In this document: positions 3,477-27,601 of the stretch, piece by piece
Numbering within the stretch: position 1 is the stretch's first letter
How the letters are laid out: each line of letters begins with the position of its first letter
Virus record (IMG/VR): IMGVR_UViG_3300021373_002523
Location: 87,784-151,783 of that record
DNA: 64,000 nucleotides
Reading direction: 5' to 3' (one strand)
Origin: a virus
Notes under the pieces: generated by a model
The model's input: the letters and a program-made list of their open reading frames with translations, nothing else
What the model was told of the DNA's origin: nothing
The model's database searches: none
Made by a program: the position numbers and the translations under genes

Positions 3477-5360
3477 TTAGATCTTAACCTCTAAATCACC
3501 CTTAGGCATTACTACACTCTTTCCGTTCTTAGGAACAATTACACTTAGCATATCGTCATCGCCTAATGAAGCATATTCTTCAGCAGAAACTAATACTTCT
3601 TGTCTCTTTTTCAAACCTTGACTGTTTACTTTCATTGATGCTTCTACATAACCATCATTTAAATAATCGTCTTTAGTTTTTTTTTCAGAAATATAAGAAT
3701 CAGCTAATTCTTTTTCCTTTCCCTTTAGCTCTTCTTCTAATAAATTTAGAGCTTCAGTTAATTCTTCAGTTTCACCTAACTTTTTAATAGCAGCCTCAAC
3801 TTCAGATTTCTTTTCTTCTAGGAAAGAAATTGAATCAGTAAGATCCTTTCTTTTATTTTCTTCAATTGCTTTTTCATTATCCTCAGCAATCAATCTTTCA
3901 GAAAGAATTGGAGAAACATCAAAGTTAATAAATTCTTTTACTATTTCTACCGTTTCAGTAGCAGTATTGATTTTTGACATTTCATTTAAGTTCATTCCAG
4001 GATTTACTTTATTAATGTAAATACCTTCACTTACTCCAATCATAGTTAAAAATACATCTAAGAATTCTGGATTCTGAATAGTTGTAAAGTTATCCATTTC
4101 AGCAAGTAAATCAACTGATTCAAAGAATTTGCAAATTTTATCATTTTGCCATTGATTTCTATAGCCTGAGAAATTCGTTGCTAATAAAGCTTCTTTTAAC
4201 TCAATGATACTATAATTAGTCATATCAACTTTACCCATTGTTAATGTACCTTCAGTAATGTTGTATTCTAATGATTTATTATTTTCACCGTGTAAAGAAA
4301 GAATATTTTCATTTCTTGAGAACATAGCTAAACCTTCAGTTATATCAAAGAATCTTGGATCTGTTACATTAGCTTCAGTAATATCAGTTCCGTTATAAGT
4401 ATAATTCTTTCCATGTAAGTGGAATGTTAAACCTTCTTCAGATTCTAAAACTGGAGAAAGAATACTTACAATCTTTCCATTTGCAGTAGATGCAATTTTT
4501 TGATCTTCAGCATTCATTTCATTTACAATTGCTTTAGCATCCATTGACCATGGGTGTTTTGTAGCAACTACAGAAAATTTAGATTTTACATCTGACTCAT
4601 TTAATAAAGAAGTTAAATCAGCATTAAAAGATTCCATTAATTTTCCTTTTTGTGAAGCAGTTCTTTCGATAGATTCACTGATTCTAAAATGCCATTTAGA
4701 ATTATTATAGGATTCCATAATATACTCTCTTAATTCAGAAATTGGATTTAACCAAGTATTCTGAGATAATCTTGAGTATAAGTCTCTTGCAATCTTAAAC
4801 TTAAGATTAGGGTTTGCTGCTTTTTCAATCTCTTCACTAACTAGTGAAAGGTCAGCATTCTTTAATTTCATTGGGAATGCAGTTATCGCTTCCTCTAAAA
4901 CAGTTAAAGATTCTTTAACAGAATATGAAACTCTGGAGTTATCGTTGTCCATTGCTTTTAGTCCGTTAATACTCTCCATAACTTTTTCATACAGATCTGT
5001 TAATGTAAAGTTCATTTTATTTTGATTTTTTTGATTATTATTTTCAGTGTATATATTGGATTTATCTTTATGCATTTGGCGATATTGAGCAATACCACTC
5101 ATTGCCATCTGTTGAGGAATTCCCATTCCAACTAAGATCGTCATAACTTGTTGATCTGTCATAGATCCGCTATGGTCAATTTTACCATCATTATCAATGT
5201 CTGACATTCTACCACTTTGATTGAACAATACATGAATGATATCCATTAATTGTTGTCTTGGTTGATTTAAATAAGGAGCATTAGTATTTACACCAGGTTG
5301 GGCATCAATGTGACCGTCTGTGTAAACTTGTGTTTGTCCTTCGTTAATTGTGTTTTCCAT
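3477..5360 (-). CDS. Hypothetical protein with a C-terminal coiled coil (possibly structural)
   Basis: 627-aa ORF with an E/K-rich heptad region near the C-terminus; preceded by a late-type AATATATA box (5382-5389). Confidence 0.6.
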   Translation of the reverse strand: MENTINEGQTQVYTDGHIDAQPGVNTNAPYLNQPRQQLMDIIHVLFNQSGRMSDIDNDGKIDHSGSMTDQQVMTILVGMGIPQQMAMSGIAQYRQMHKDKSNIYTENNNQKNQNKMNFTLTDLYEKVMESINGLKAMDNDNSRVSYSVKESLTVLEEAITAFPMKLKNADLSLVSEEIEKAANPNLKFKIARDLYSRLSQNTWLNPISELREYIMESYNNSKWHFRISESIERTASQKGKLMESFNADLTSLLNESDVKSKFSVVATKHPWSMDAKAIVNEMNAEDQKIASTANGKIVSILSPVLESEEGLTFHLHGKNYTYNGTDITEANVTDPRFFDITEGLAMFSRNENILSLHGENNKSLEYNITEGTLTMGKVDMTNYSIIELKEALLATNFSGYRNQWQNDKICKFFESVDLLAEMDNFTTIQNPEFLDVFLTMIGVSEGIYINKVNPGMNLNEMSKINTATETVEIVKEFINFDVSPILSERLIAEDNEKAIEENKRKDLTDSISFLEEKKSEVEAAIKKLGETEELTEALNLLEEELKGKEKELADSYISEKKTKDDYLNDGYVEASMKVNSQGLKKRQEVLVSAEEYASLGDDDMLSVIVPKNGKSVVMPKGDLEVKI

Positions 5361-12542: not shown

Positions 12543-12568
12543 TTATATGTAAAAATTATGATTTGTTT
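12543..12568 (-). promoter_or_regulatory. Putative middle promoter (AAAC-N16-ATATAA) upstream of uvsX
   Basis: Copy of the recurrent motif. Confidence 0.6.
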
Positions 12569-13449
12569 AAGTTTAATCTCTTTTCAATTAAAGGTTTCCA
12601 ATATCTTTGTATTGCATATTTCCAATCCAATTTTTCAGTAAGCTCATCATATACATCATTAACATATTTTTCTAATTGAGCAGGATCTGAATTTAATTCG
12701 TTTATAATTTTTACTGCTTCATCAACTGTACTAAAAGTTTTTATACTCTTAAATCTTGATGCAAAACCTACAGGTGTAGATATTACTGGTATTTTACAAA
12801 AGGCTGCTTCGGCTATCCCATAAGGACCTGCTTCATGAGTACTAGTGCAAACATACATATCAATATCTTTATAAAGATTATGGTGTTCATTAAGATCTCG
12901 GTTGTTTATAAATTCTGGTGAACATCGTACTTGTTTACAAATATCTACAAACATTTGTGGCCTTTTAACCAAATCCCAACCTTTATTAACAAAAGGAATA
13001 CCATTTAAGCCTAAGGTTCTTATCTTATCTATTTTTCGTGTTGGATAAAAATGTTCTGAGTTTACGCCAGCAACAGCAAATTCTGCATCTATGTTAAAAT
13101 GCCTTTTTAGCGCCATTGCTATTTCTCCAGTCGGAGCAGCCCAAAGAATATCTTTGCTCTCACCGATTACTTCAATAAAATGATTACCTTCTAATTTAGG
13201 TTCTGCCCAACATACGCATATACATTTTTTATGAAAAGCTGGATCATTAATATAATTGGAAATAACACCGTTACTTAGTATAGCATCATATTCCTTCCAT
13301 GTATTATTAAATGATTGAACATCATTGGTATTATTCCAATCAAAAATAGTAAAGTCATAATCATCACTAAGATGGTTTACAACTTCACTATGAATTCTAC
13401 CTATAGACCAATCGGTCTGATTAAATATTGCTAGCCTTGGTTTTTTTTT
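12556..13449 (-). CDS. Second GT-B (GT4-like) glycosyltransferase domain, apparently reached by a -1 frameshift from the upstream GT gene
   Basis: The frame is open from 13458 but has no ATG until 13116. The skipped 111 codons (KKKPRLAIFNQTDWSIGRIHSEVV...) look like the GT-B N-terminal strand/helix. The C-terminal part has TSTHEAGPYGIAEAAFCKIPVISTPVG (EX7E motif). Confidence 0.75.
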   Translation of the reverse strand, partial: KKKPRLAIFNQTDWSIGRIHSEVVNHLSDDYDFTIFDWNNTNDVQSFNNTWKEYDAILSNGVISNYINDPAFHKKCICVCWAEPKLEGNHFIEVIGESKDILWAAPTGEIAMALKRHFNIDAEFAVAGVNSEHFYPTRKIDKIRTLGLNGIPFVNKGWDLVKRPQMFVDICKQVRCSPEFINNRDLNEHHNLYKDIDMYVCTSTHEAGPYGIAEAAFCKIPVISTPVGFASRFKSIKTFSTVDEAVKIINELNSDPAQLEKYVNDVYDELTEKLDWKYAIQRYWKPLIEKRLNLNKS

Positions 13450-14615
13450 GAAGAAGCATCAGGATGTCCTTGGTGCTCTAACCACTCATTAGTATAAATT
13501 GATGAATCATCAATATGATACCATCCTTGCCCTTGGAAAATATTTCTAACATCAGTAAAGAATTTTTCATACTTAGGAGCAATAGCTTCTAAAGAAAACT
13601 TTTCTCCATGTGCTCTACAGTCTTCGGATTTAATTTTTCCATCTAAGCAATTTTTGGCAGCTCTAACAAAATCATCAAAGGTTCTACATCTGTACCCAGT
13701 AACACCTTCAATATTATTTTCTGCAAATGCACCCCAGTCAGTAGTAATAGTTGGAGTACCAGAAAGTAAGTTTTCAATTTGAACTCCACCAAAAGGTTCT
13801 ACATACATTGATGCTAAGAAGGATGCTTTAGCACCTTTCATTAATTCTTTTCTTTTTTCTAAGCCAGCATACCCTACAAATTCAACATGATCTGGCCAAA
13901 CAAAATCAGGTTCTGCATAGTGTCCGGATAATTGCCCAGCAACTTTTAATTTAACACCTAATGCTTGTGTTACTTGTATTGCAATATTAACACCTTTGCC
14001 ATCATAAACTCTACCTACAAATAAAAAGTAATCTTCCTTTTTATCATTGTACTCAAATTCATCTAAATCAAAATAGTTAGGAATTACAATGTCATACCAT
14101 TTTTGATTACATGTACCTATATTTGGTAATCCACACCATGCATGATATATTGCATAAGATTCAAATATTTTAAAGTCAGCCCAGTGCCCATCAGCATAAC
14201 CGATTCCTGGCTCAATTACAATAAGATCATTATGAGCATCACATATAGCTCTTACACCATGACCCCAAAATGGTAAAATAATATCACCGGGTTGTTTTCT
14301 TTTTTCTATTTCAGCTATCGCATTTTTGTAAAATGTTTGATATGCTTTATCATTTATATCAAAGGTAAATAACTTACTTTGATAATCATGATCACCATAA
14401 ACTTCATTCCACTCTTCAGTGCTAATTACAGGTATAAGTTCATCCGCCTCAGGATTTGATTCTTCATGACCATAATGCATTAAGTAATGCCCTCTACCTT
14501 TCATCATTTTACAAAACTTCCATACTTTCATAGTATATGCACAAGCTGTAAAATCCTTAGTAGTTTTAGTATGAGGTAAACCTAATAAGTGTATTCTAAA
14601 TTGTTGTTTCGCCAT
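13431..14615 (-). CDS. Glycosyltransferase family 4 (GT-B)
   Basis: LFVGRVYDGKGV, EPFGGVQIENLLSGTPTITTDWGAFAE (EX7E motif). Confidence 0.9.
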   Translation of the reverse strand: MAKQQFRIHLLGLPHTKTTKDFTACAYTMKVWKFCKMMKGRGHYLMHYGHEESNPEADELIPVISTEEWNEVYGDHDYQSKLFTFDINDKAYQTFYKNAIAEIEKRKQPGDIILPFWGHGVRAICDAHNDLIVIEPGIGYADGHWADFKIFESYAIYHAWCGLPNIGTCNQKWYDIVIPNYFDLDEFEYNDKKEDYFLFVGRVYDGKGVNIAIQVTQALGVKLKVAGQLSGHYAEPDFVWPDHVEFVGYAGLEKRKELMKGAKASFLASMYVEPFGGVQIENLLSGTPTITTDWGAFAENNIEGVTGYRCRTFDDFVRAAKNCLDGKIKSEDCRAHGEKFSLEAIAPKYEKFFTDVRNIFQGQGWYHIDDSSIYTNEWLEHQGHPDASSKKNQG

Positions 14616-14645: not shown

Positions 14646-15770
14646 TTAAAAAAGACTAGTCGTATAAATGAGGTTTCGGTTAAATGCCTTAAAGCCCATT
14701 GCAGTAACTACACGATTTATAGGATCAAGTATAGTTTTTTCAAACTGTCTATCATGATCAATCTCTGGTGCAAATTCATAAGGATAATCACCAGGCGCAA
14801 ATGCAAATACATCACAAGATTTATCTTTTGAGAAATACATTTTACACTTTTCTCCATTTCCTAGCGGTTGATATTTACCTTTAGATGAAGAATTGTTTAA
14901 TAAGTAATTATGATAACCTGCAGATCTAACGCCGATTGGACATCTTGATGCAAATTCAAATTGTTCATAATCGTTTACAATATACTTTTGATAATTATTT
15001 ACTTTTCTAGAAAAACAAATTTGATCTACATTTGCTAATTTAAATTGCCTTTTTATATCTTTAAGAAGAGCAGCAAATTCTTTCATATCTAATTTATCAA
15101 CTGAAAAAATATATGTTAGCAGATCCTTAAGTTTTTCTCTAGCAAATATTGGGGTTGATGATTGAATAATTTCAAAACCTTTTGAACTAATTTTAGAAAG
15201 ATCTTCATAATGAATGTCAGGATCCTTCCAAACAATATTTTGCATATACTTTTTCTTTGCCAACCATATTGCATTTTTGGCAATACTTTCTAATTCGAAA
15301 GATAAAAAGTTTTCTGCATTGTTATCATCAGCATATTTTTGAAGTATTTTTTCTAAATAACCATTAACCCTAACTTTATATAATTTAAGAATGAATTCTT
15401 TTTCATCACCTTCCCAACCTTCACTCTTTTTAATTACTTCATCAAATTTTACATATACTGAATCTGTATCAATATAAATACCTACAGGATTTTCAATTCT
15501 ACCAGTTACAGTAATTCCCATTTCTTTATGAGCTGCGATATCTTTATGCCAATATTGTGTAAAGTATTTATTAAGTAATTCTTCAGTATAAAGAATTGCA
15601 TCTTTACCTTGTAATGTAATCGTTTCTGCAATGTCTACATTAAAGAAATAGAAATAAGGATTACCAAATGCTCCATAAATAGAGTTAAGCATTAATTTAA
15701 CTGCTTGCTCATAATTATAAAATTTACTAGCTTCTTTCTTTATTTTTTGTAATTCAGTCAGTTCAGTCAT
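14646..15770 (-). CDS. gp43B: Family B DNA polymerase, C-terminal subunit (gp43B: motifs B and C, thumb)
   Basis: KLMLNSIYGAFGN (motif B), YIDTDSVY (motif C), AKKKY, KGFEIIQSSTP. Lacks the exonuclease domain and motif A. Confidence 0.92.
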   Translation of the reverse strand: MTELTELQKIKKEASKFYNYEQAVKLMLNSIYGAFGNPYFYFFNVDIAETITLQGKDAILYTEELLNKYFTQYWHKDIAAHKEMGITVTGRIENPVGIYIDTDSVYVKFDEVIKKSEGWEGDEKEFILKLYKVRVNGYLEKILQKYADDNNAENFLSFELESIAKNAIWLAKKKYMQNIVWKDPDIHYEDLSKISSKGFEIIQSSTPIFAREKLKDLLTYIFSVDKLDMKEFAALLKDIKRQFKLANVDQICFSRKVNNYQKYIVNDYEQFEFASRCPIGVRSAGYHNYLLNNSSSKGKYQPLGNGEKCKMYFSKDKSCDVFAFAPGDYPYEFAPEIDHDRQFEKTILDPINRVVTAMGFKAFNRNLIYTTSLF

Positions 15771-16114: not shown

Positions 16115-16864
16115 TTAGTCTTCATCAGTAATTGCAACTGCTACTGTTAAATGAGTGTTTGTATCTAAAGATCTAAATACAACTTTATTGCTGCATACTA
16201 CTACTCTATAATTTTCTTTATCCAAAAGATTAATATACTTTTTGTAAATAACAACTTTTTGTCCTACTGCATCTTCTCCTTCGTATGTATGTGCTAAAGT
16301 AGCATCATAAGAAAGACCTTGTACTGCAACACCTTTATCATTAACTGCTAAAGTAAATGTATCTTCTTCTCTTTCTAAATTAAATAGAGATTTCATTTTA
16401 TCTACATGAGTAGTAAGAAGATCAAATTCAAAAATACTACCTTCAGTACCAAATGCACGATCTGTTTCTTCTTTACTCATTTCCATAAATGATAAAGATG
16501 GATCTGCACATGCTAAATTAATCTGAAGATCATCATTAGCCAATGTAAAATCACTTGCCATTAATTCACCGTCAATTTCTGAATATTTAATCTTTCCTTG
16601 TACATCACCATTAAAATGAGATAGTGCATCTATAACTTTTGTACCGTTATAAAAACTAACTTTTACAGGATCAGTAATTTCTGTATCAAAGATATCAGAA
16701 GTTGGAGTTGATACTAGTTTCACTGCATCCCTCTCAGGGAAGTACACAGATGAAACGGTTCCTTCTTTACCAATTTTCATAAATATAAATTTATCAATCG
16801 GTAAAAGCTTTTTGACGAATGTACTTAATTCGTAACCGTCAATCTTTTTAATTGTTGCTTCCAT
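16115..16864 (-). CDS. Probable DNA sliding clamp (gp45-like)
   Basis: 249 aa, acidic, two-domain alpha/beta pattern, C-terminal LLDKENYRVVV...VVFRS...TVAVA; replication-gene context. Confidence 0.6.
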   Translation of the reverse strand: MEATIKKIDGYELSTFVKKLLPIDKFIFMKIGKEGTVSSVYFPERDAVKLVSTPTSDIFDTEITDPVKVSFYNGTKVIDALSHFNGDVQGKIKYSEIDGELMASDFTLANDDLQINLACADPSLSFMEMSKEETDRAFGTEGSIFEFDLLTTHVDKMKSLFNLEREEDTFTLAVNDKGVAVQGLSYDATLAHTYEGEDAVGQKVVIYKKYINLLDKENYRVVVCSNKVVFRSLDTNTHLTVAVAITDED

Positions 16865-16886: not shown

Positions 16887-16912
16887 TTATATGCATTAAT
16901 CTTAAATAGTTT
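16887..16912 (-). promoter_or_regulatory. Putative middle promoter (AAAC-N16-ATATAA) upstream of the clamp gene
   Basis: Copy of the recurrent motif. Confidence 0.6.
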
Positions 16913-18174
16913 TAAAAAGTACTATTAACTTTATACTTCTTTTTTGGTGCAGCACCTAATTCTTCTGTTACTAAAATTTTCTGTTTAGTATTATCTTGCT
17001 TCATAAAGGTAAAGTTTGTCATTTTAGATTCACCTCTACAGAATTTTTTAACTTCATCTGCCATATCCATTGCAGTAGTCACAGGTACATTTTGAGCAAT
17101 ATGATTTACTTGACCTGAATGTTCTATACCAAAATCTAAAGGTAATCCCATTAAATGTAGCATCTCTCTAATGTTTAAATACCTATCCTCTACTGGGTGA
17201 ACTCCATTAAACATATTTCTACCAATAAGAGCAGAAAAGCTTTCATTAAAGAAGTGTGGTGATGCATCCCAATAACCCAAACCTTGGCTAGTCTTATACT
17301 GCTGATGCTCTAGCATATCAGAAAAAGTTTTTGTAGACTTTTTATTTGAAAAACCTTGCTTAGGATAATTTTTATTGAGCCATTGAATACATTCATCAAT
17401 TAAATCATTTGCTTCTAAGTATTGTGCAATTGTACCCTTCTTAAATTTAGCAGCAAATTCTTTATGACTTAATCCTTCCTTTTGTAAAACAAATTCATAA
17501 GGCCTATAATGTTCTGTAACTTTACCATCTACCATAAACATATCTTGGTGAGTGGCGTCTTTTGGAATTTCATTAAGATAATCAATAAGATTTTTCTTCT
17601 CTCTAAATTTCCAATTTAACAAAGGTACCGTTGGTGTATTCCAAAAGAAGTAAAAAGTTCTTATTCTTCTTTGAGGTATTCCATGCAATTCAGTATTAGT
17701 TTTGATTAAAGAAAAACTATAACCATATTTACGACCTATTTCTTTAAGTCTTTCAACAACACCTTCTCCCATTTTTGTAAATAAGCCTGGTGCATTTTCA
17801 CCCCAAAGAACTTTAGGTTTTACATTTTCTAAAATATACTCTGATGAATCATACATCCATTTGTTTTGTGTAGCACCTGAACCACGAGATGCCGCTGTAC
17901 CTCTCGCAGAATTTAACTGGGATAAGCCTGCACAAGGGCATACTGAATTTACATAATCTACCTCTTCAAATGTTTGATTAGGAATTTCTAGATCTTCATG
18001 ATCCAATCTATACATTGGTACATCTGGCCAATATTTTTCAATATGACTTTCATTAGCAGCAAATGCTTCATAACTTAAATGAAAAGCTGGATCTACACCT
18101 GCTGATTTTTTACATCCTATGGCACTACCTCCTATAAGAGGGATTATAGTACCCCATTTTAATTCTTTACTCAT
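16912..18174 (-). CDS. DNA cytosine-C5 methyltransferase-fold enzyme with atypical SAM-binding motifs
   Basis: Motif IV CPCAGLS, VI GENAPGL, VIII HGIPQRRIRTF and IX RYLNIREMLHLMGLP are intact. Motif I is IIPLIGG (not FxGxGG) and motif X is AQNVPV (not GNxV). Confidence 0.85.
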   Translation of the reverse strand: MSKELKWGTIIPLIGGSAIGCKKSAGVDPAFHLSYEAFAANESHIEKYWPDVPMYRLDHEDLEIPNQTFEEVDYVNSVCPCAGLSQLNSARGTAASRGSGATQNKWMYDSSEYILENVKPKVLWGENAPGLFTKMGEGVVERLKEIGRKYGYSFSLIKTNTELHGIPQRRIRTFYFFWNTPTVPLLNWKFREKKNLIDYLNEIPKDATHQDMFMVDGKVTEHYRPYEFVLQKEGLSHKEFAAKFKKGTIAQYLEANDLIDECIQWLNKNYPKQGFSNKKSTKTFSDMLEHQQYKTSQGLGYWDASPHFFNESFSALIGRNMFNGVHPVEDRYLNIREMLHLMGLPLDFGIEHSGQVNHIAQNVPVTTAMDMADEVKKFCRGESKMTNFTFMKQDNTKQKILVTEELGAAPKKKYKVNSTF

Positions 18175-19193
18175 ATTTTTACTTTTTCAATTTCCAAATC
18201 TTCCATAAAAGTTAAAGGATCTATTGTACCTTCTTTAATCTCTTCTTCTAAATAAACAATAGTTTCTTTAATAGTATCTTTTATATCTTTTTTAGGCTCC
18301 CATCCCATTGATTTAGCTTTAGATATATCACCTCTAATATTTAATGCTTCACCTGCAATTGGATCATAATGATCAAAAGGTACTTCACCTACTTCCATTA
18401 TTTCCCCAATCATATTTTTAAGTTCCATTAAATTAGTCATTTTACCAGTTCCTAAATTAAATGTTTGGTTAGCTGTATTTTCATTTTCCATACAAAGAAT
18501 ATGAAATGCATTTACATCTGCAACATCTATATAATCTCTTGCTTTCATATAATCCCCAAACACAATAGGATTATGGCCACCTTTAATTCTTAAAATAAAT
18601 CCTGCAAATACTGGAGGAATAGTTCTGTTATAATCTTGCAAAGGGCCTGCAACATTAAAGTATCTTAATGCTGTATAATTTAATCCTTTAGTTCTATGAT
18701 AAGATTCAGCCAATAAAGCAAGGCATGCCTTTGTTGTAGAATAAATTGTGGTAGGGTCTGATTGTGTTTCATTAAATCCTGCATCTGGCATTTCACAATT
18801 TTCATACACAGCAGAAGTTTCACTAAAGATAATTCTTTTTACCCCAGCCTTTACACAACCGTTCATTACATTAATACTCCCTAAGATATTGTTATCTACT
18901 GCTTCATAAGGATCTTCATTACAGTCATAGATAGAAACAAGACCAGCAAAATGATAAACATAATCAGGTTTAAATTCCTCTATAATGTTTTCCACATATT
19001 GATTTCTAATATCTACCTTATGAAAATTTTCAATTTGATCATGGACTTTAGGAATATAAGTTCCGTGTTCCATATTATCTACAACAGCAATGCATTTAGG
19101 ATTATGCCCTCTGTTTAATAAGTCGTTAATAAAATTTGTACCAACGAACCCAGCTCCACCGGTAACTAGGATTTTAGTGTTTGAATTATACAT
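18171..19193 (-). CDS. NAD-dependent NDP-sugar epimerase/dehydratase (extended SDR)
   Basis: LVTGGAGFVG, HFAG, YSTTK (YxxxK), LRYFNVAGP, RDYIDVADV, FNLGTG. Confidence 0.92.
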   Translation of the reverse strand: MYNSNTKILVTGGAGFVGTNFINDLLNRGHNPKCIAVVDNMEHGTYIPKVHDQIENFHKVDIRNQYVENIIEEFKPDYVYHFAGLVSIYDCNEDPYEAVDNNILGSINVMNGCVKAGVKRIIFSETSAVYENCEMPDAGFNETQSDPTTIYSTTKACLALLAESYHRTKGLNYTALRYFNVAGPLQDYNRTIPPVFAGFILRIKGGHNPIVFGDYMKARDYIDVADVNAFHILCMENENTANQTFNLGTGKMTNLMELKNMIGEIMEVGEVPFDHYDPIAGEALNIRGDISKAKSMGWEPKKDIKDTIKETIVYLEEEIKEGTIDPLTFMEDLEIEKVKI

Positions 19194-20448
19194 TGATTTC
19201 AGTTTTAGTTGTTACTCTTTTGTAAGCTTCCCATATCTTATTATCTACATGTTCTCCAGTATAATAAGAATCTTTTAAATACTTTTCTTGTAAATTATAG
19301 AAAAGCTTTTTATAATGTTCAGGATTATCATTTAAAAATTGTACTTTCTTTTTTAAATCCTCTGGTGATTTACATCTGATGAAGTGACCTTCAGGGAAGA
19401 CATTAAAGTCGGTATCATAAGATGGATGCAAGAATGGTATAATACCATAGTGCAACATTTCTGCATACTTAGAGGTTACCATTCCTTCTTTAATAGGTAC
19501 ACAGAATGTATATTTAGTTGCAAGCAGTTCATCAGTCATTGTCTCAATTCTCTTTTCTCCTTTAAACCATTTAGGATATTCTTTCTTTAGGTCATCATCC
19601 CACTTACCATAAATATCAGTTTCAATATCATTCTTTACAATATAATCTCTTACAGGATCCCAGCGGTCCATTCCACCTGAACCCTTTCCTTGGTTTTGTA
19701 ACATCATAAATGAATTAGTCTTTTTCATTTCAAATAATTCATCAGTGTCATATCTCTTTTTATCTAAAAGGAATACAGTTTCAATTCCTGAATATTCATA
19801 AGTAGATTCAATTGTATCAATATCTCTTAAAGGTGGATTACAAAAGAACTCTTCCGTTTTTGTAAATGTATTTTGTGCTAAGTAATATGTTGGCCTATTA
19901 TTATCATTCCAATCTTTACATGCTAAAATGTATCGGTTATCAACAAGTAAACCAACAATAGGTACTTTCTTTTCCAATTCATTCATTGCTTTAATTATAG
20001 GAGCTGCATAGTACTTAAAAAAGTCTAAAGATTTAACTCTCCCGGTTCCATCTACTTTGTTAATATAATCTGGTATGTTAACTGTACTTGATGGCCCGGT
20101 ATAGAAAAAGATAAAATCTAAATCTAAATCTTTTATAATTTGAGCAGCTTCATCAGCTGATTTCCTATCAGTCATTGTAGAGTGGAATTCTTTTACATTT
20201 GATGGTGCAGCAGATTCTGTTTCAACCGGAGGACCGAATAAAGATTGAACTGCTGGTTTTTCTTTTGCTCTAACTCTACCTAAATCATTTGGGCTTAATA
20301 GCCAATATTCAATATTAGGATTTCTTTTTGCAATTGAATTAATTAATTGCTTAGGTTCACAATCTCCACCTATTGCTCCCCAACTGTTTTCATTAAACTT
20401 AATCGCTTTACCAAGTTTAAAGAAACCTACTTTTTTTACATTTTCCAT
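19186..20448 (-). CDS. GT-B glycosyltransferase, probably DNA-base modifying (phage BGT-like clade)
   Basis: N-terminal KVGFFKLGKAIKF...WGAIGGDCEP; C-terminal DIYGKW...KYTFCVP...VTSKYAEMLHYGIIPFLHPSYD resembles the BGT-like TxR/K-x-E block. Confidence 0.65.
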   Translation of the reverse strand: MENVKKVGFFKLGKAIKFNENSWGAIGGDCEPKQLINSIAKRNPNIEYWLLSPNDLGRVRAKEKPAVQSLFGPPVETESAAPSNVKEFHSTMTDRKSADEAAQIIKDLDLDFIFFYTGPSSTVNIPDYINKVDGTGRVKSLDFFKYYAAPIIKAMNELEKKVPIVGLLVDNRYILACKDWNDNNRPTYYLAQNTFTKTEEFFCNPPLRDIDTIESTYEYSGIETVFLLDKKRYDTDELFEMKKTNSFMMLQNQGKGSGGMDRWDPVRDYIVKNDIETDIYGKWDDDLKKEYPKWFKGEKRIETMTDELLATKYTFCVPIKEGMVTSKYAEMLHYGIIPFLHPSYDTDFNVFPEGHFIRCKSPEDLKKKVQFLNDNPEHYKKLFYNLQEKYLKDSYYTGEHVDNKIWEAYKRVTTKTEINV

Positions 20449-20449
20449 T

Positions 20450-21154
20450 TTAACAATTTTGAATTAAATCTTCTATTACTTCTTTATCATTTTCATATGT
20501 TAAATCATACCAACATATGTTCAGTTCTTCGAACTTTAAATTATCCATTGAGTTTATTAGATGGGTAATTTCATATTCATTTCTATTTGACATTTTAATA
20601 CTATCAAGATTATCAAATGCTTCTTTAGAAAATATCATATAACCACAGAAATATCTACCTGAAACAATGCCGTGAGGTTTCTCAATGACAACATTTTCTA
20701 ATATAGATGCAAGCTGTAAATTTCTTGCTCTTGTATCATAATCTTTATAAGTAACAACAGTTGTACTTGGATCATGATATTCTAATCCTATATTTCCTTG
20801 ATAATAATTATCTCCAAACAGACATAAGAAACCTTCATTAAATTTACCTGCCCAAACTTTTATGGCAGCACCTGGGCCATATTCATCATCCTTTTGAAAT
20901 TCATAAAATATATTGATATCTTTTTTATACTTATTAAGTTTTTCAATAATAGGATGAGATAGTTTTACACTATCTTTAAAAAAGAAGTCAGCTTTACTGA
21001 TTGTTACATAACAATCTTCTATTCCATTTTCAATACAAAATTCAATACAGTACTCTACAGTTGACTTACCTAAAATAGGATCAACTAATTTATTTTTACC
21101 GTACCTAGTGGAACGGCCTGCTGCTAATATAATTGCTTTACTTATTCTTTTCAT
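20450..21154 (-). CDS. Sugar-1-phosphate nucleotidyltransferase (RmlA/HddC-like)
   Basis: AIILAAGRSTR, LFGDN, IEKP, SNRNEYEIT (RmlA RGELEIT-like). Confidence 0.88.
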   Translation of the reverse strand: MKRISKAIILAAGRSTRYGKNKLVDPILGKSTVEYCIEFCIENGIEDCYVTISKADFFFKDSVKLSHPIIEKLNKYKKDINIFYEFQKDDEYGPGAAIKVWAGKFNEGFLCLFGDNYYQGNIGLEYHDPSTTVVTYKDYDTRARNLQLASILENVVIEKPHGIVSGRYFCGYMIFSKEAFDNLDSIKMSNRNEYEITHLINSMDNLKFEELNICWYDLTYENDKEVIEDLIQNC

Positions 21155-21897
21155 TTAGTATATTTTATTTCTAATTCATCAAACAGCTCATGGCCTTTTT
21201 TAAGGAATGAACCTGCTAATTCATATCTTTCATTTAATTCAAAGAAAGGTACTGCTCCTAATAAGTGAACAGCTAAAAAGAATTTAAGTTGATATTCATC
21301 ACACCATTCATACATTACTTTTTCTGCTTCTTTACAAAACTTACTGTACTTTTCATTTGGATTATTGTATATATGGGACTCATATTCCATGACAAATGAT
21401 TGCATAAGTTTTCCATAATCATAATAGTTCTGTTCTTCAGTTCCTCTTGGATCAATAAATAGAAAATCTTTATCATGTAAAATGTTACTTACTGTTAAAT
21501 CACCATGAACAAATCCCCAAGCAGATACTGCATCAAATTTACCTTCATAAGTATAACCTGTTCTTAATTGAAGTTTATCAAAATAATCTTGAGTTTTTAC
21601 ATCAGATCCTATATTATCAAATTTACCTATAATTGAAATTAAAGATTCTAATTGGCCTAATGAAGTATTCATAGGTTGTGATAAAATTTTATCATACCAA
21701 GTAGAATATCTTTTCATTTCATAACTTGTTTCTGATAGAGGCTTGACATCAATAAAATTAGGATGATCACAGCACATAAGAAAATCCATTTGCTGTTTAA
21801 ATTTTTCTGGATAATGCCCAGCCTCTTTAATTACTTTATTACCTTGGAGAAAAACTTTATCTCCGCTATTCCCTACTAAAATTTTACTATTATGCAT
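21151..21897 (-). CDS. APH/choline-kinase-fold phosphotransferase (probable sugar kinase)
   Basis: GNSG glycine loop, HGDLTVSNI catalytic loop, FIDPRG, YDYGKLMQS. Confidence 0.8.
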   Translation of the reverse strand: MHNSKILVGNSGDKVFLQGNKVIKEAGHYPEKFKQQMDFLMCCDHPNFIDVKPLSETSYEMKRYSTWYDKILSQPMNTSLGQLESLISIIGKFDNIGSDVKTQDYFDKLQLRTGYTYEGKFDAVSAWGFVHGDLTVSNILHDKDFLFIDPRGTEEQNYYDYGKLMQSFVMEYESHIYNNPNEKYSKFCKEAEKVMYEWCDEYQLKFFLAVHLLGAVPFFELNERYELAGSFLKKGHELFDELEIKYTK

Positions 21898-22427
21898 TTT
21901 ATTCCTAGTTTACGTGCAAAGGTTGAATCCACATCAGAATCTCCAACCATTAAGAAGTCTTCTTTATTATATTGCGGAAATTTTTCCATTATTAAATTTC
22001 CCATATCTGGTGATGGTTTCTTATTTGGTACATCTTCTCTTGTATATATGTAGTCAAATAAATTAGGATCTATTTGATGGTAACTCATAATTCTATCAAC
22101 ATTTTCTCGCGATGAATTAGATGCTACAACTAAATTTTTAAATACTTTACTTTTACACATATACAAAAGTAATTCATTTACCTTTGTTTTATGTAGGTTT
22201 TTAGAAAATATTTCTTTTTTATATTTTTGGGCTAATTTAGATTCTTTATTAGTTAATTGATATTTTTCTAATAAAACATCCATACCATAATTAATATCTG
22301 CCATAATAGCAGAAAGTGGTATTTCTATGTTTAAGACTTTCTCTAATGCCTTTCTCCATGAATCAGCATGAATCTCAATAGTTTTAACTAAAGTATCATC
22401 AAAGTCTAACATTAAACATTTTTCCAT
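21876..22427 (-). CDS. HAD-superfamily phosphatase (beta-PGM/Gph-like)
   Basis: LDFDDTLV, ASNS, KPSPD, MVGDSDVD. Confidence 0.9.
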   Translation of the reverse strand: MEKCLMLDFDDTLVKTIEIHADSWRKALEKVLNIEIPLSAIMADINYGMDVLLEKYQLTNKESKLAQKYKKEIFSKNLHKTKVNELLLYMCKSKVFKNLVVASNSSRENVDRIMSYHQIDPNLFDYIYTREDVPNKKPSPDMGNLIMEKFPQYNKEDFLMVGDSDVDSTFARKLGIKCIIVKF

Positions 22428-22445
22428 ATAAATCCTAATTTATTA

Positions 22446-22471
22446 TTATATGGCAAAATAAATAAATGTTT
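22446..22471 (-). promoter_or_regulatory. Putative middle promoter (AAAC-N16-ATATAA) heading the six-gene modification operon
   Basis: Copy of the recurrent motif. Confidence 0.62.
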
Positions 22472-22498
22472 TAAGAGTGCTAGAGATATTTTTAAGAC

Positions 22499-22530
22499 AA
22501 AAAAAGACCGCCTAGATGGCAGTCTCTTTT
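22499..22530 (-). terminator. Rho-independent terminator after the Hc1-like gene
   Basis: Minus strand GACTGCC-ATCTA-GGCGGTC-TTTTTTT. Confidence 0.78.
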
Positions 22531-22549
22531 CAGGTAATTGGAGTGGTTA

Positions 22550-22726
22550 TTATAAACTGTTTTTAGTTTCTTGTACATGTACTCTTACTTCTTGTGCTAA
22601 GTTTTTAACTTCTTGCATAGTTTTACGAATTCTTACGGCTGCTGCCTTATTTCCTTTTACATAAAACTTATCTATGTCTTCAGTACACGCTTCGATTAAC
22701 GCTTTAATTTCTTCAAATTTTTCCAT
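22550..22726 (-). CDS. Histone H1-like (Hc1-family) small DNA-binding protein
   Basis: Not in the ORF track. 58 aa: MEKFEEIKALIEACTEDIDKFYVKGNKAAAVRIRKTMQEVKNLAQEVRVHVQETKNSL; the KF..KGNKAAA.R.RK motif is typical of Hc1. Has its own late-type box and terminator. Confidence 0.85.
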   Translation of the reverse strand: MEKFEEIKALIEACTEDIDKFYVKGNKAAAVRIRKTMQEVKNLAQEVRVHVQETKNSL

Positions 22727-22764
22727 AATAATTATTTTTAGTTATTTAATCTATATATTCATCA

Positions 22765-23673
22765 CTAGAACTTGCCTTCACGGTTTCTGTAAAAACTTGT
22801 TACTTTAGGAATGTACATATAATTTTTTCCTTTGTCCTTGACATTCATCATGACTCTTTTAAACATATCCCAATCGGCTGGTAATATACCACCTGAATTA
22901 GATGGTGCACCTTTTAGCTTAGGGGCTGTGTTTCTCTGTTGATCTGGATTTCTATATCTTAATTTACCTATTATACTAGGTCTCCAAGATACAGCAGAAT
23001 GAGAAGTATCATTTGCACCATACCCTTTATTATTTAAATCCATATCATATTCTTTTTGTGGTTGCATAAATACCTTCTTTGAAGTATTGAATGCAGTTAC
23101 TTTCTTTTTACTTCTAGTAAAAACAAAACCTAAATCTGGAAATTGAGAATATGCTTTAGCAATAGTCTCTAAATGATTAGGAGCCCATTTATCATCATGG
23201 TCTAATCTAATGATATAATCACAACCATCTTTTTCCGCCATGTTTAATGAATCATTTAATGCAGCACAGCCTGCAGTAAATCTTATTTGTTTAGTAGTCC
23301 ACTTTTTGTTATTTCTTTCACCTGGTGTAGTTCTATTCTTATATTGAATTTGAGCATCAGGAATAATATCTTTAATTACTTTTTTAATTTCATTTTCATC
23401 ACCTTCATATTTGTCAGCGGTCAAATAAATTTTCCAGTTTTTATATTTTTGATTCTTAATAGAATTCAAAGCATCAGCTAAAACCCCAGGAGTAGTCATA
23501 TGTTTTGCTCTTTGCTTATTTGCAGCTCCAGCACTCATATCATGAGTGGCCATGACTATACCGAATTTAATATCATTGTCTATTTTGGAACTTAAATTCT
23601 TTTCTAAAAGAATCTGAAAATTTTCTTCTTCTAAATAAGACTCTAATAATTTAAAATCTTCAAAGGTTATCAT
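22765..23673 (-). CDS. Glycosyltransferase family 2 (GT-A) with an N-terminal capsid-targeting-like leader
   Basis: FGIVMAT...LNSIKNQKYKNWKI...ALNDSL...RLDHDDKW (DxD)...ADWDMFKR. The leader is MITFEDFKLLE. Confidence 0.82.
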   Translation of the reverse strand: MITFEDFKLLESYLEEENFQILLEKNLSSKIDNDIKFGIVMATHDMSAGAANKQRAKHMTTPGVLADALNSIKNQKYKNWKIYLTADKYEGDENEIKKVIKDIIPDAQIQYKNRTTPGERNNKKWTTKQIRFTAGCAALNDSLNMAEKDGCDYIIRLDHDDKWAPNHLETIAKAYSQFPDLGFVFTRSKKKVTAFNTSKKVFMQPQKEYDMDLNNKGYGANDTSHSAVSWRPSIIGKLRYRNPDQQRNTAPKLKGAPSNSGGILPADWDMFKRVMMNVKDKGKNYMYIPKVTSFYRNREGKF

Positions 23674-24785
23674 TTGTTAAAAAATGTTTTTATAGACTTT
23701 ATAATTCTTTCCATATCTTCATCAGTAAGATCAGAACCAGAAGGTAAACAAATACCTTGTAAGAATAATAAAGAACTGTTTCCATTTATATATTTTTTAT
23801 AACCTTGCATAACTGGTTGTTCATGCATTGGCTTCCATATTCTCCTAGCTTCAATATTATCTTTTTCCAAATGAGCAATTAAATCTTCTGGTTTATATTC
23901 ACCTTTCATTATAGCACAGGTTAACCACATATTAGATCTGTCTGTTTCTAACTCTTCCTGAAAACCAAAAAATAAATCACCTAATTCTTTTCTGTAAATC
24001 TGATTAATTTCTCTTGTTCTTTTTATTCTTTCTTCTATAACTTCCATCTGAGCAACTCCGATAGCAGCAAGAACATTACTCATTCTATAATTATATCCTA
24101 TATCAGTATGATGGTAGTATGGCCTGTTATCTTTTGCTTGTGTCGATAAAAATCTCATATAATCAGCTTTCTTTTTATCGTCAGTTACAATTACCCCACC
24201 ACCTGATGTAGATAATAATTTATTTCCATTAAAAGAATAAACACCAATATCGCCAAAGGTTCCTGTGTGCTTATCTTTAAAAGTAGAGCCGAGACTTTCG
24301 GCGGCATCTTCAATAATAGGTATGTCATATTCATCTGATAATTTTTTAATTGCTTCCATGTTACAAGGTACACCGAAAATATGTACAGGAATAATAGCCT
24401 TTGGTTTTTTACCTAAAGCTGTTGAATTGAGTATAGCAGATTCTAATAAAGTTAAATCCATATTCCAACTACCTTCTTCTGAATCTATAAAAATAGGTTC
24501 GGCACCACAATAAATTATAGGATTTGCTGTAGCTGCAAAAGTTAAAGAAGAACATATAACATAGTCATCTTTTTCTACGCCTAATGCCCTAAGAGCTAAA
24601 TGTATACCTGCAGTACAAGAAGTAACTGCTACTGCATACTTCGCTCCAGTATATTCTTTTACAATTTCTTCGAATTTATTAAGATGAGGTCCAATTGGAG
24701 CTATCCAATTATCTTTAAATACATCTTTAATATATTCTAATTCTTTGCCTGACATATGAGGCGGTGATAAGTAAATCTTTTTCAT
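23670..24785 (-). CDS. DegT/DnrJ/EryC1/StrS PLP aminotransferase (PglE-like)
   Basis: IYLSPPHM, IEDAAESLGS, SFNGNKLLSTSGGG, GYNYRMSNVLAAIG, WKPMH, LPSG. Confidence 0.93.
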   Translation of the reverse strand: MKKIYLSPPHMSGKELEYIKDVFKDNWIAPIGPHLNKFEEIVKEYTGAKYAVAVTSCTAGIHLALRALGVEKDDYVICSSLTFAATANPIIYCGAEPIFIDSEEGSWNMDLTLLESAILNSTALGKKPKAIIPVHIFGVPCNMEAIKKLSDEYDIPIIEDAAESLGSTFKDKHTGTFGDIGVYSFNGNKLLSTSGGGVIVTDDKKKADYMRFLSTQAKDNRPYYHHTDIGYNYRMSNVLAAIGVAQMEVIEERIKRTREINQIYRKELGDLFFGFQEELETDRSNMWLTCAIMKGEYKPEDLIAHLEKDNIEARRIWKPMHEQPVMQGYKKYINGNSSLLFLQGICLPSGSDLTDEDMERIIKSIKTFFNK

Positions 24786-24786
24786 A

Positions 24787-25332
24787 TTATTTTATTTTAG
24801 CCGGATTACCATAAGCCGTAATGTTATCAGGCATATTTTTTGTTACTACTGAACCTGCACCTATCATACAGTTTTTTCCAATTTTTATGTAAGGCAAAAT
24901 TACTGCGCCTGCACCAATAAAAGTACCTTCTCCAATTTCAACACCACCACATAAAGTTGCATTAGGGCCGACGAAGGAAAAGTCTCCTAACTTACAATCA
25001 TGATCAATTGATGCTGAGGTATTAATTATACAATGCTTTCCTATCTTAGTACCAACCTGTACTACTGCTCTGTGTAAAATTTGAGTACCTTCCCCAATAT
25101 CACTATCATAAACTAAAGCTGATTCTGCTATAACAATAGCATAACAACCTTCACCTAATTTATTGGCTATTGTTTTTCTTGCTTGATTATTTCCAATGGC
25201 AATAACCCAGCTCCCTCTTGCACTTTTATCGTAATCCTCATCATTCCAAAATTTTATCTGTTTAGGATGTCTATTCCATAAAACAGAATTAACTACTCTT
25301 GCATGGCCACCTTTACCGTAAATGTTAATCAT
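24787..25332 (-). CDS. Hexapeptide-repeat sugar N-acetyltransferase (PglD/NeuD-like)
   Basis: IYGKGGHA, IAIGNN..R, INTSASIDHDC, GAGSVV, GNPAK. The start is probably MINIYG at 25332, overlapping the upstream stop. Confidence 0.9.
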   Translation of the reverse strand: MINIYGKGGHARVVNSVLWNRHPKQIKFWNDEDYDKSARGSWVIAIGNNQARKTIANKLGEGCYAIVIAESALVYDSDIGEGTQILHRAVVQVGTKIGKHCIINTSASIDHDCKLGDFSFVGPNATLCGGVEIGEGTFIGAGAVILPYIKIGKNCMIGAGSVVTKNMPDNITAYGNPAKIK

Positions 25333-26380
25333 TGCTTTCTCTTTTAAATTCTGGAACAATACTTTTCATCAATAGAAGTATTTTGTAAAAATCATTAGAT
25401 CTTATTTTTGATAATTTTTCTATTTTAGGTATTAAAGTTTTAAAATCATAATCTTCATGATTTAACTTCATAATATTATGATCATCAGTAGGTATCATAT
25501 TTTCACCATTACATAATAGCTCTTCATATAATTTTTCACCTGGTCTTAGTCCTATGTATTTAATTTTAGCATCACTATTAAAATACTTAATTAAATTTTT
25601 GGCTAAATCAGTAATACTAACAGGCTCGCCCATATCAAACAAAAACACTTCTCCACCTTTACCTAGTACACCTGCCTGTAATACTAATTGACATGCTTCA
25701 GGTATAGTCATAAAGTATCTAATTACCTCTCTGTGAGTAACGCTCACAGGTCCTCCTCTTTCAATTTGTTTTATAAATGTTGGAATTACTGAACCTTCAG
25801 ATCCTAATACATTACCAAATCTTGTAACTATAAAATTTGTGGCAGATTTTGTTTCTAAAAATTGTGTATATAATTCTGCAATTCTTTTTGTAGCTCCCAT
25901 TATGTTAGTAGGATTAACTGCTTTATCTGTAGAAACCATTACAAATTTTTCAACTTCATTCATATAAGCCGTGTTAGAAACGTTCATGGTTCCTAATACA
26001 TTAGTTTTAATTGCTTCTATAGGATTAGCCTCCATCATTGGTACATGTTTATATGCAGCAGCATGAAAAACAATATTTGGTTTAAAAGAATCAAAAACTT
26101 CTTCTAACCTATACTTATCTCTTACATCACCTATTACATATTTAATATGAGAGTTTGGAAATGATCTACTTATTTCTTGTTCTAAATGAAACATTGAAGC
26201 TTCTGCATTATCAAAGACTGTAACTGAAGATGCACCAAATTTTACAAGCTGCCGTACAATTTCACTACCAATCGAGCCGGCTCCACCAGTAACTAAAATT
26301 CTTTTTCCTTTTATGTATTCTTGGATTTTATTAAGATCAGTAGAAATAGGATCTCTTCCAAGTAATTTATTATAATCCAA
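25325..26380 (-). CDS. UDP-GlcNAc 4,6-dehydratase (PglF/CapD catalytic domain, soluble)
   Basis: LLGRDP, VTGGAGSIGSE, HAAAYKHVP, STDKAVNPTNIMGATK, RFGNVLGSEGSVIP, RYFMTIPEA, GLRPGEKLYEEL. Confidence 0.95.
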   Translation of the reverse strand: MDYNKLLGRDPISTDLNKIQEYIKGKRILVTGGAGSIGSEIVRQLVKFGASSVTVFDNAEASMFHLEQEISRSFPNSHIKYVIGDVRDKYRLEEVFDSFKPNIVFHAAAYKHVPMMEANPIEAIKTNVLGTMNVSNTAYMNEVEKFVMVSTDKAVNPTNIMGATKRIAELYTQFLETKSATNFIVTRFGNVLGSEGSVIPTFIKQIERGGPVSVTHREVIRYFMTIPEACQLVLQAGVLGKGGEVFLFDMGEPVSITDLAKNLIKYFNSDAKIKYIGLRPGEKLYEELLCNGENMIPTDDHNIMKLNHEDYDFKTLIPKIEKLSKIRSNDFYKILLLMKSIVPEFKRESND

Positions 26381-26858
26381 AATCCTTAAACTTTAAAATA
26401 TTATCTTTCTTTTCCAACAAACCTTTCCCAACTAAATTATTAATTACAACTTGCTGCGACTTCATAACTCTTTTCATTGCTTCATCATAATCTAAAAATC
26501 CTGCCCAGTCAACTTCTTCTGTTTGTAATTGCCTTTTAGGTATTACTAAATCCTTCAATCCTATTTGAGAAAGATCAGATATTTGAGCAATATAATAATA
26601 AACAATTTTAGTGTATTTGTACTTTCTGGTTGTTAGTACAAATGTATGCTTATCATTTTTATTAATTAGATTTTTAGGAACCTTTATACCGACTTCTTCT
26701 TTGGTTTCTCTCAATGCAGCTTCAAAATGCGTTTCACCTTTTTCAATTCCACCTTTAGGGATTCCATAAGAACCATACCAGCCTCTATTGGTAGTATGAG
26801 CTAATAAAATTTTATTGTCATATATGATTGCTAATCCAGCTGAAAATTTTGTTTTCAT
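26370..26858 (-). CDS. NUDIX hydrolase
   Basis: Nudix box PKGGIEKGETHFEAALRETKEEVGI. Confidence 0.9.
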   Translation of the reverse strand: MKTKFSAGLAIIYDNKILLAHTTNRGWYGSYGIPKGGIEKGETHFEAALRETKEEVGIKVPKNLINKNDKHTFVLTTRKYKYTKIVYYYIAQISDLSQIGLKDLVIPKRQLQTEEVDWAGFLDYDEAMKRVMKSQQVVINNLVGKGLLEKKDNILKFKDFGL

Positions 26859-27601
26859 ATATTATTTATTTGAGACACTAACCAGTCTAATTCTACCTGG
26901 CTACCTGAGTCTGAAATAGCATTATCAGGATCTGGGTGAGTTTCAATAAATACTCCATCATATTCAAAAATCTTAGCTGCTTTAGCATATTGCTTTGCTA
27001 ATTTACGACTCCCTCCGGTTATACCATCTCCAGCCATTTGAGTAGAATGAGTACAGTCTAAAATAACTTTATCTGCAAACTTTTTCATTACATCAACTCC
27101 TCTAAAATCTACAATAAGCCTATCATAACCAAATTGTGATCCTCTTTCAGTTACCCATACTTCACAGTTAGGATCCACTTCTTTTATTTTTGTAACAGCA
27201 TGCACCATAGCCTCAGCCGATAACCATTGTCCTTTTTTAATATTAATCACATTAAAGTTTTTTGCGCATTCAACTAGAAGATCAGTTTGCCTACATAAGA
27301 AGGCTGGTATCTGAATAACATCCACTACCTCAGATAGCGGTAATGCCTGAGAAGGTTCATGAATATCAGTTATGATTTTAATATGAGGATAGAAATGTTT
27401 AACTGTTCTCATGATCTCCATCCCTTCTTTTAAACCGGGACCTCTATCAGAATGTATAGAAGTTCTATTTGCCTTATCAAAAGATCCTTTTAAATACCAA
27501 TCCTTTGTTCCCATCCAACCGTCTAAGGTTTTAGCAACCTCTAAAAAATTTTCCTCATTCTCAATACTACAAGGACCTAATATGTAAGTATATTTTTCCA
27601 T
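26855..27601 (-). CDS. kdsA: KDO 8-phosphate synthase (metal-dependent type)
   Basis: GPCSIE, KGSFDKANRTS, TDIHE, QIPAFLCRQTDL, NIKKGQ, ERG, DCTHS, ETHPDP...SD. Confidence 0.93.
   Translation of the reverse strand: MEKYTYILGPCSIENEENFLEVAKTLDGWMGTKDWYLKGSFDKANRTSIHSDRGPGLKEGMEIMRTVKHFYPHIKIITDIHEPSQALPLSEVVDVIQIPAFLCRQTDLLVECAKNFNVINIKKGQWLSAEAMVHAVTKIKEVDPNCEVWVTERGSQFGYDRLIVDFRGVDVMKKFADKVILDCTHSTQMAGDGITGGSRKLAKQYAKAAKIFEYDGVFIETHPDPDNAISDSGSQVELDWLVSQINNI

Follow-up and report, generated by a model that had tools for sequence, protein, structure and literature searches.

Two offset glycosyltransferase frames joined at an adenine run in T4-like phages: a predicted programmed recoding site

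The window analysed here is a 64,000-nucleotide (nt) stretch of the IMG/VR virus record IMGVR_UViG_3300021373_002523 (positions 87,784 to 151,783), in which all genes lie on the minus strand. It contains two adjoining glycosyltransferase (GT) frames, GT1 and GT2, which differ in reading frame and overlap at a run of nine adenines (A9). The features of the locus and of its surroundings are listed in Table 1.

The GT1-GT2 junction and the two enzymes

The 3' end of GT1 reads ...TCA AAA AAA AAC CAA GGC TAG. In the GT1 frame, the A9 run contains both A AAA AAA and A AAA AAC; the latter heptamer (13446..13440) is in the X XXY YYZ phase of that frame. In the GT2 frame, a TGA at 13461..13459 is followed by CFFKKKPRLAIFNQTDWSIGRIH..., and the frame stays open as far as 12556. 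Its earliest ATG, GTG or TTG is at 13116 (codon 115), and the preceding 114 codons are start-less. The overlap of the two frames is bounded by this TGA and the GT1 TAG (13433..13431), and a productive shift must therefore fall inside its 31 nt. A -1 shift in the run would yield a product of 686 amino acids (aa) with the junction ...DASSKKKPRLAIF.... The original prediction, made from the window sequence, had described the GT1 end, the A9 position, the TGA, the heptamer phase, products of 394 and 686 aa and a GT2 frame start-less over a long stretch, and all of these are confirmed by the sequence and translations. The 186-aa open reading frame (ORF) called by gene finders inside GT2 is an annotation artefact of the frameshift. 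No internal terminator was found between GT1 and GT2, and promoter-like matches between them occur at chance level only. Co-transcription of the two frames is part of the explanation that we favour below.

The window has only two homopolymers of at least nine nt, the junction run being one. The other is a minus-strand A9 at 3677-3685 in the ORF 3477-5360. It lies in the frame of this 627-aa ORF, which has no known function, at 68 codons from its end (...S E K K T K...). A -1 slip there would reach a stop after 5 further codons, giving a truncated variant.

GT1 matches Pfam PF00534 (Glycos_transf_1; 1.4e-15) and the glycosyltransferase family phrog_3408 (2e-165) and carries an EX7E motif (EPFGGVQIE). 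By these matches and the motif, GT1 is predicted to be a GT4-type retaining glycosyltransferase. The Pfam match of GT2 is only partial. An AlphaFold2 model of GT2, built from an alignment of 20 homologues, has a pLDDT of 90.2 and a pTM of 0.87, and Foldseek matches it to the GT-B/GT4 enzymes SenB, GlgM, BshA, MshA and PimA with probability 1.0 and TM scores of 0.64-0.72. The EX7E motif of GT2 is EAGPYGIAE, in which the second glutamate (E217) is invariant. The model thus bears out the earlier proposal that GT2 is a complete second GT-B domain and predicts a GT4-like enzyme. Both domains look like active GT4-type enzymes, although this activity is predicted. The family of GT2 is restricted to viruses and has members in tailed phages and giant viruses.

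Table 1. Positions of the junction features and of other genes in the window
Feature	Position	Strand	Remarks
GT1 (P0001)	14615..13431	-	394 aa, frame-0 product; TAG 7 nt past the A-run
A9 slippery run	13449..13441	-	proposed site of the -1 shift or of one A added in transcription
GT2 frame (P0002)	13458..12556	-	-1 relative to GT1; open for 300 codons
Overlap window, 31 nt	13431..13461	-	bounded by the GT2-frame TGA and the GT1 TAG
Hairpin AGACC-GATT-GGTCT, 5 bp	13418..13405	-	22 nt 3' of the run
186-aa ORF (P0004)	12556..13116	-	gene-caller annotation; C-terminal 62% of GT2 from an internal ATG
Family-B DNA polymerase, C-terminal part	14646-15770	-	~14.7 kb from the N-terminal part
Family-B DNA polymerase, N-terminal part	30495-31910	-	exonuclease
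249-aa ORF	16115-16864	-	no family match; adjoins the C5-cytosine methyltransferase
C5-cytosine DNA methyltransferase	16912-18174	-	just upstream of the polymerase C-part
Sugar-nucleotide/glycan island	18171-27601	-	PglF/E/D-like enzymes, KdsA-like protein, further GTs
Another GT	19186-20448	-	glycan island
DegT aminotransferase	23670-24785	-	glycan island
PglD-like acetyltransferase	24787-25359	-	glycan island
PglF-like dehydratase	25325-26380	-	glycan island
KdsA-like DAHP_synth_1 protein	26855-27601	-	glycan island
Giant collagen triple-helix repeat protein	38822-51577	-	4251 aa; Pfam PF01391, 1654 bits

Conservation of the junction in related loci

GT2 homologues were used as queries against IMG/VR and against JGI, ENA and Tara metagenome contigs, and 85 loci were analysed by script. 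Of the 24 distinct junction sequences obtained, one is that of the window, 12 come from IMG/VR and 11 from metagenomes. The original prediction had named beforehand, as a test, whether homologous loci keep an A-run together with an out-of-frame second domain, and all 24 do. GT2 is in the -1 frame relative to GT1 at every junction, the run is uninterrupted (A9 in 22, A8 in L004, A10 in L016), and the GT1 stop lies 1-14 nt past it. The A8 and A10 junctions are still offset by -1, indicating that run length changed together with compensating changes that keep the offset.

The GT2 frame is intact at all 24 loci, with ORFs of 293-308 codons. In pairwise comparisons, the 114 start-less codons at the beginning of GT2 have a dN/dS of 0.06-0.33, and the remainder 0.05-0.36. 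The start-less part is therefore under purifying selection, which indicates that these codons are read as protein. The run itself also appears to be under selection. On the gene strand of the 24 loci (123 kb in total), the junction run is the sole run of at least nine As in each of the 23 loci that reach nine. Elsewhere in the 123 kb, no such run was observed against 10-16 expected, with at least 6 in each of 100 Markov simulations, and A8 runs number 5 against 26-42 expected. AAA makes up 79% of the lysine codons in these genes, so lysine bias alone would not keep all the junctions pure.

A homopolymer miscall that splits a fused gene, or the decay of GT2 as a pseudogene, might give a similar picture. 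Reading A10 as A9 is an error typical of homopolymers, and the 186-aa fragment is all that gene callers report. However, the same state is found in independent assemblies and in divergent lineages. At 90% identity, the 186-aa ORF of the window falls in a cluster of 12 sequences on ~70 contigs, nearly all called at 186 aa, and these contigs stem from five sources (JGI, ENA, Logan, NCBI and Tara); for most relatives in the wider clade, the called length is about 220 aa. One independently assembled locus, L033, has a GT2 98% identical to that of the window, with a dS of 0.12-0.15, and retains A9. The uniform -1 state across independent assemblies and divergent lineages excludes the assembly error that the original prediction had named as a refuting outcome. 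The intact GT2 frame, purifying selection that includes the start-less part, and the confident model of a complete GT-B domain with its catalytic EX7E motif likewise argue against a dead gene. An artefact or a dead gene is hardly credible here.

Homopolymer tracts in glycosyltransferase genes are classic bacterial contingency loci. By analogy, an A gained or lost in replication could switch the fusion ON (A10) or OFF (A9), with the assemblies recording a majority OFF state. Poly-A/T phase variation is among the subjects of the available text of the 2013 GeneTack survey (PMC3711429), and runs of 8, 9 and 10 are all present among the lineages. However, the A8 and A10 lineages are themselves out of frame, and the uniform -1 state noted above argues against ON/OFF variation. 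The in-frame state was found at 0 of the 24 distinct junctions, 0 of ~45 junction-spanning loci and 0 of the ~70 contigs of the window cluster. A search of proteins of 526-2000 aa (5.8 billion clusters) gave no in-frame fused allele close to that of the window, and a gapped exact-pattern scan of viral contigs recovered no near-identical junction of any run length. We consider DNA phase variation very improbable.

The fused protein does exist elsewhere. Among the 150 best GT2 relatives that a full HMMER scan of 1.84 billion representative proteins brought up, 30 have GT1 in frame at the N-terminus, and four of these 30 are simple two-domain GT1-GT2 proteins of 653-690 aa. The predicted 686-aa product is colinear with the natural fusions through the junction (...[KR]K-KP[KR][VL]AI[FW]...); that of P0089 reads ...EWIEKS..PQRKPKVAIFSE.... 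In-frame fusions with the same domains, order and joining point occur in giant-virus metagenome-assembled genomes and other viruses (L023, on a giant-virus contig of this kind, P0081, P0089, P0122 and P0139). They have no A-run or recoding, and only the fused form is made. These comparisons indicate that GT1-GT2 is a naturally existing architecture.

In a maximum-likelihood tree of GT2, all A-run loci fall in one clade (support 100/97), within which three ATG-initiated revertants are nested. In the sister clade, GT1 and GT2 are separate genes coupled by ATGA, and the in-frame fusions lie further out. Simple fusions and separately initiated genes, which would have told against recoding had they been the rule among the homologues, are thus confined to sister and nested lineages. 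The most economical reading of the tree is a single origin of the recoding arrangement, which would have been kept over more than one substitution per site in GT2. The L047/L049 revertant (MIAMNGKKKRIAIW) encodes its lysines as AAA AAG AAA AGG, and is a natural control in which an ATG was regained and the run was interrupted by AAG.

In L027/L072, a sister lineage of the ATG type, GT1 ends with an in-frame A9 (...KKNKQDQK*) ~16 nt before its stop; GT2 has an ATG of its own within an ATGA overlap. This state may be a pre-adaptation or an intermediate toward the recoding arrangement.

We also considered separate translation of GT2, either by termination-reinitiation or by a leader-independent start at a near-cognate codon just past the GT1 stop. 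The A-run would then be merely an unstructured, A-rich ribosome-loading or enhancer sequence. The GT1 stop is within about 20 nt of the first hydrophobic GT2 codon at all loci, and many lineages have ATA at the first β-strand residue. L003 has a GTG in the GT2 frame at that place, 3' of the run, which gene callers use (P0006), and the own-start GT2 genes of the sister lineages indicate that a free GT2 can function. However, no near-cognate codon is conserved: the position is GTA in L016/L045, CTA in the window, L018 and L046, and TTA in L019. To our knowledge, these three codons are not used as bacterial start codons, and initiation at an ATA or ATT, another refuting outcome named in advance, finds no support in this pattern. 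An enhancer role would leave unexplained why the run is a pure homopolymer of 8-10, why the offset is constantly -1, and why AAG interrupts it in L047/L049, where GT2 has acquired a real ATG. The natural in-frame fusions, moreover, join at the same position. Separate initiation is very improbable.

Two further readings of the junction were rejected. A third-frame ATG at 13460..13458, with AAGGA 7 nt upstream, would start a separate overlapping GT2 if the run were A8; L033 has ACG there yet retains A9, and third-frame starts are not conserved in other lineages. Some megaphages read TAG as an amino acid; such a reading of the GT1 TAG does not lead into the GT2 frame.

Probable programmed recoding and the machine that may slip

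We conclude that the locus is probably a programmed recoding site yielding GT1 and a GT1-GT2 fusion (probability about 0.86). The original prediction had proposed that both proteins are made by a slip, and the 24 conserved junctions, the selection on GT2 and the natural fusions support it. Offset ORFs with a start-less downstream frame, a slippery run inside their overlap, and conservation with purifying selection are found together here, as expected of a recoding site, and the conservation in two dozen related variants points to a real programmed site. Normal decoding would give GT1 alone, and a fraction of expression events would shift to -1 within the run to give the bifunctional protein. 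GT2 would be made solely as the C-terminal half of the fusion, since it has no start codon of its own.

Two routes could produce the shift. RNA polymerase may stutter on the 9-bp A:T hybrid and leave one extra A in the mRNA, or the ribosome may make a -1 tandem slip on A AAA AAA or A AAA AAC. The protein would be identical by either route, and both may contribute. We slightly favour transcriptional slippage, at a little better than even odds within the recoding explanation, with ribosomal frameshifting at a little under even. The run length of 8-10 matches the 9-10 bp RNA:DNA hybrid; in the available text of a 2016 review, from which we take both the hybrid length and the length threshold for slippage, efficient slippage in vivo is described at 9 As or Ts, mainly adding As (PMC5009743). 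Across the 24 junctions, the run is placed in all three codon phases, consistent with slippage, for which a homopolymer of about hybrid length may stand in any phase. The ribosome-optimal A AAA AAG occurs at none of them. The σ70-like factors encoded in the window fit the use of a host multisubunit RNA polymerase. On the ribosomal side, each junction offers a correctly phased A AAA AAA or A AAA AAC.

The features of canonical stimulated -1 programmed ribosomal frameshifting, a conserved structure or an internal Shine-Dalgarno sequence, are missing. Neither conserved RNA structure up- or downstream nor an upstream Shine-Dalgarno-like stimulator was found at 13 folded junctions, most of which have z-scores near 0, and no Rfam element, including frameshift elements, was found at the junction. 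The original prediction had pointed to a small hairpin downstream of the run. Its position and sequence are correct; as a stimulator, it is weak, being present in some lineages only and having a folding energy no better than that of shuffled sequences. Since the conserved GW[AS]IGR codons overlap the hairpin, it is probably incidental.

Several points weigh against programmed recoding, or against its slippage form. A conserved KKK linker combined with AAA bias would by itself give part of the purity of the run. The L051-L053 lineage has an upstream ATG in the GT2 frame and could initiate GT2 separately; L051, with its ATG 33 nt before the run, is the only junction with such an upstream start. 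Nor are the 24 junctions fully independent of one another, as the phages that carry them have core replication genes 77-100% identical. The shift is predicted from sequence. Regarding slippage, Antonov et al. (PMC3711429), in the available text, take a uniform -1 direction among orthologues as a pointer to ribosomal frameshifting rather than transcriptional realignment, and all 24 junctions are -1, without the mixed directions that this heuristic expects of slippage. The heuristic is not a strict rule, since a long A-run mainly gains As when slippage takes place.

Well-known cases of recoding at A-runs are dnaX, insertion sequence (IS) elements and the phage G/GT genes. In Thermus thermophilus dnaX (tau/gamma) and in IS transposases, as described in the available text of two sources (PMC5009743; PMC3711429), a run of ~9 As or Ts lies inside the coding region, as it does here, and added As shift a fraction of translation to give two proteins with a common N-terminus; no RNA stimulator is needed. 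In T. thermophilus dnaX, the shifted frame ends early and gives the shorter product, whereas here it would add a second enzyme of ~295 aa. The genes here differ also in being viral glycosyltransferases, and the slippage is predicted from their sequence. In Escherichia coli dnaX and the phage tail chaperone G/GT, a -1 shift takes place on an A-rich X XXY YYZ heptamer, its direction is conserved among orthologues, and expression yields a short product together with one extended at its C-terminus, at a set ratio; G/GT is, like GT1-GT2, phage-encoded. These systems use A AAA AAG or similar heptamers, whereas only A AAA AAA or A AAA AAC is present here. The junctions here lack a conserved hairpin or pseudoknot on the downstream side and a Shine-Dalgarno-like stimulator upstream, and their runs of 8-10 exceed the 7 nt that the ribosome needs.

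Genomic setting, candidate substrate and significance

The source is a T4-like, AT-rich aquatic phage, with a GC content of 34% in the window. The window encodes a gp20 portal, gp32, UvsW, gp46/47-like SbcCD, a DnaB/gp41-like helicase and RecA/UvsX, as well as a ribonucleotide reductase, σ70-like factors and a split family-B DNA polymerase. Around the junction, the genes stand in the order polB C-part, GT1, GT2, recA, orf101 and dnaB. The ribonucleotide reductase and the glycan-biosynthesis island lie between the two polymerase parts. The nearest deposited record, LR756500.1 (L001), is an uncultured 462-kb phage with a RecA 54% identical to that of the window; the GT pair is absent at this position in that record. 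The polymerase C-part beside GT1 is conserved in related loci, and the polymerase of LR756500.1 is split differently, by a 567-aa ORF.

Identity across the loci is 70-95% for GT1 and 77-100% for the flanking polB-C, RecA and DnaB proteins (L002-L059 compared with the window). For GT2, it is just 38-63%. This contrast marks GT2 as a hypervariable cassette set in a conserved replication module; a role at the interface between the phage and its host or environment would fit.

The substrate may be sought in DNA or in protein. T4 β-glucosyltransferase is a GT-B fold enzyme, and its gene (b-gt) lies between gp43 and uvsX, the same place as that of the GT pair; this position points to DNA. However, no sequence similarity to the T4 enzyme was detected, and no dCMP hydroxymethylase lies beside the GT pair; Pfam found neither a dCMP hydroxymethylase nor a 2-oxoglutarate (2OG)-Fe(II) hydroxylase in the window. 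In the cyanophage ACG-2014f (L088), a GT1 homologue stands beside a collagen-repeat protein, a 2OG-Fe(II) oxygenase and a tail fibre. This setting among structural genes suggests protein or glycan substrates and points away from DNA. From these comparisons, glycosylation of a virion or fibre protein seems more likely than that of DNA. The giant collagen-like protein is a candidate acceptor of the phage glycosyltransferases. In the glycan island, the PglF-like, DegT and PglD-like enzymes together resemble a diNAc-bacillosamine-type pathway. The island also encodes a nucleotidyltransferase, HAD and NUDIX proteins, an epimerase and a glycosyltransferase of the GT2 family. Like the collagen-like protein, the island is a clue in favour of a protein or glycan substrate.

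The two GT4-type domains would add successive sugars to a common acceptor, which may be a virion or fibre glycan, for example on the 4251-aa collagen-like protein. The fusion would put the two transferase activities on one polypeptide, with GT1 alone also made, and we infer that the ratio of the two products might tune glycan length. We tentatively suggest, at somewhat less than even odds, that in this widespread clade of aquatic T4-like phages slippage of the host polymerase on A9 sets the ratio of single to tandem glycosyltransferase and thereby controls a variable second sugar on a phage glycan, possibly that of the collagen-like fibre.

A full-text literature search found no paper linking frameshifting or slippage to phage glycosyltransferases. 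The term 'glycosyl' is absent from the PRFect survey and from the available text of the 2016 review (PMC5009743), and occurs once in the available text of the GeneTack survey (PMC3711429). If our reading is correct, the locus would be the first recoding-controlled glycosyltransferase in the literature searched and, if the polymerase is what slips, a rare case of productive transcriptional slippage in a phage. Phage recoding outside tail chaperones and capsid genes is known from few cases, to which this well-conserved gene family would be added. The locus would also correct an annotation: the truncated 186-aa 'glycosyltransferase' on ~70 public contigs would in reality belong to a predicted 686-aa bifunctional enzyme. 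Closely related genomes provide natural controls, as they carry the A-run form, ATG-coupled separate genes and in-frame fusions. The arrangement would link recoding to a hypervariable glycosylation cassette of abundant aquatic phages, and may matter for their virion surface and their interaction with the host.

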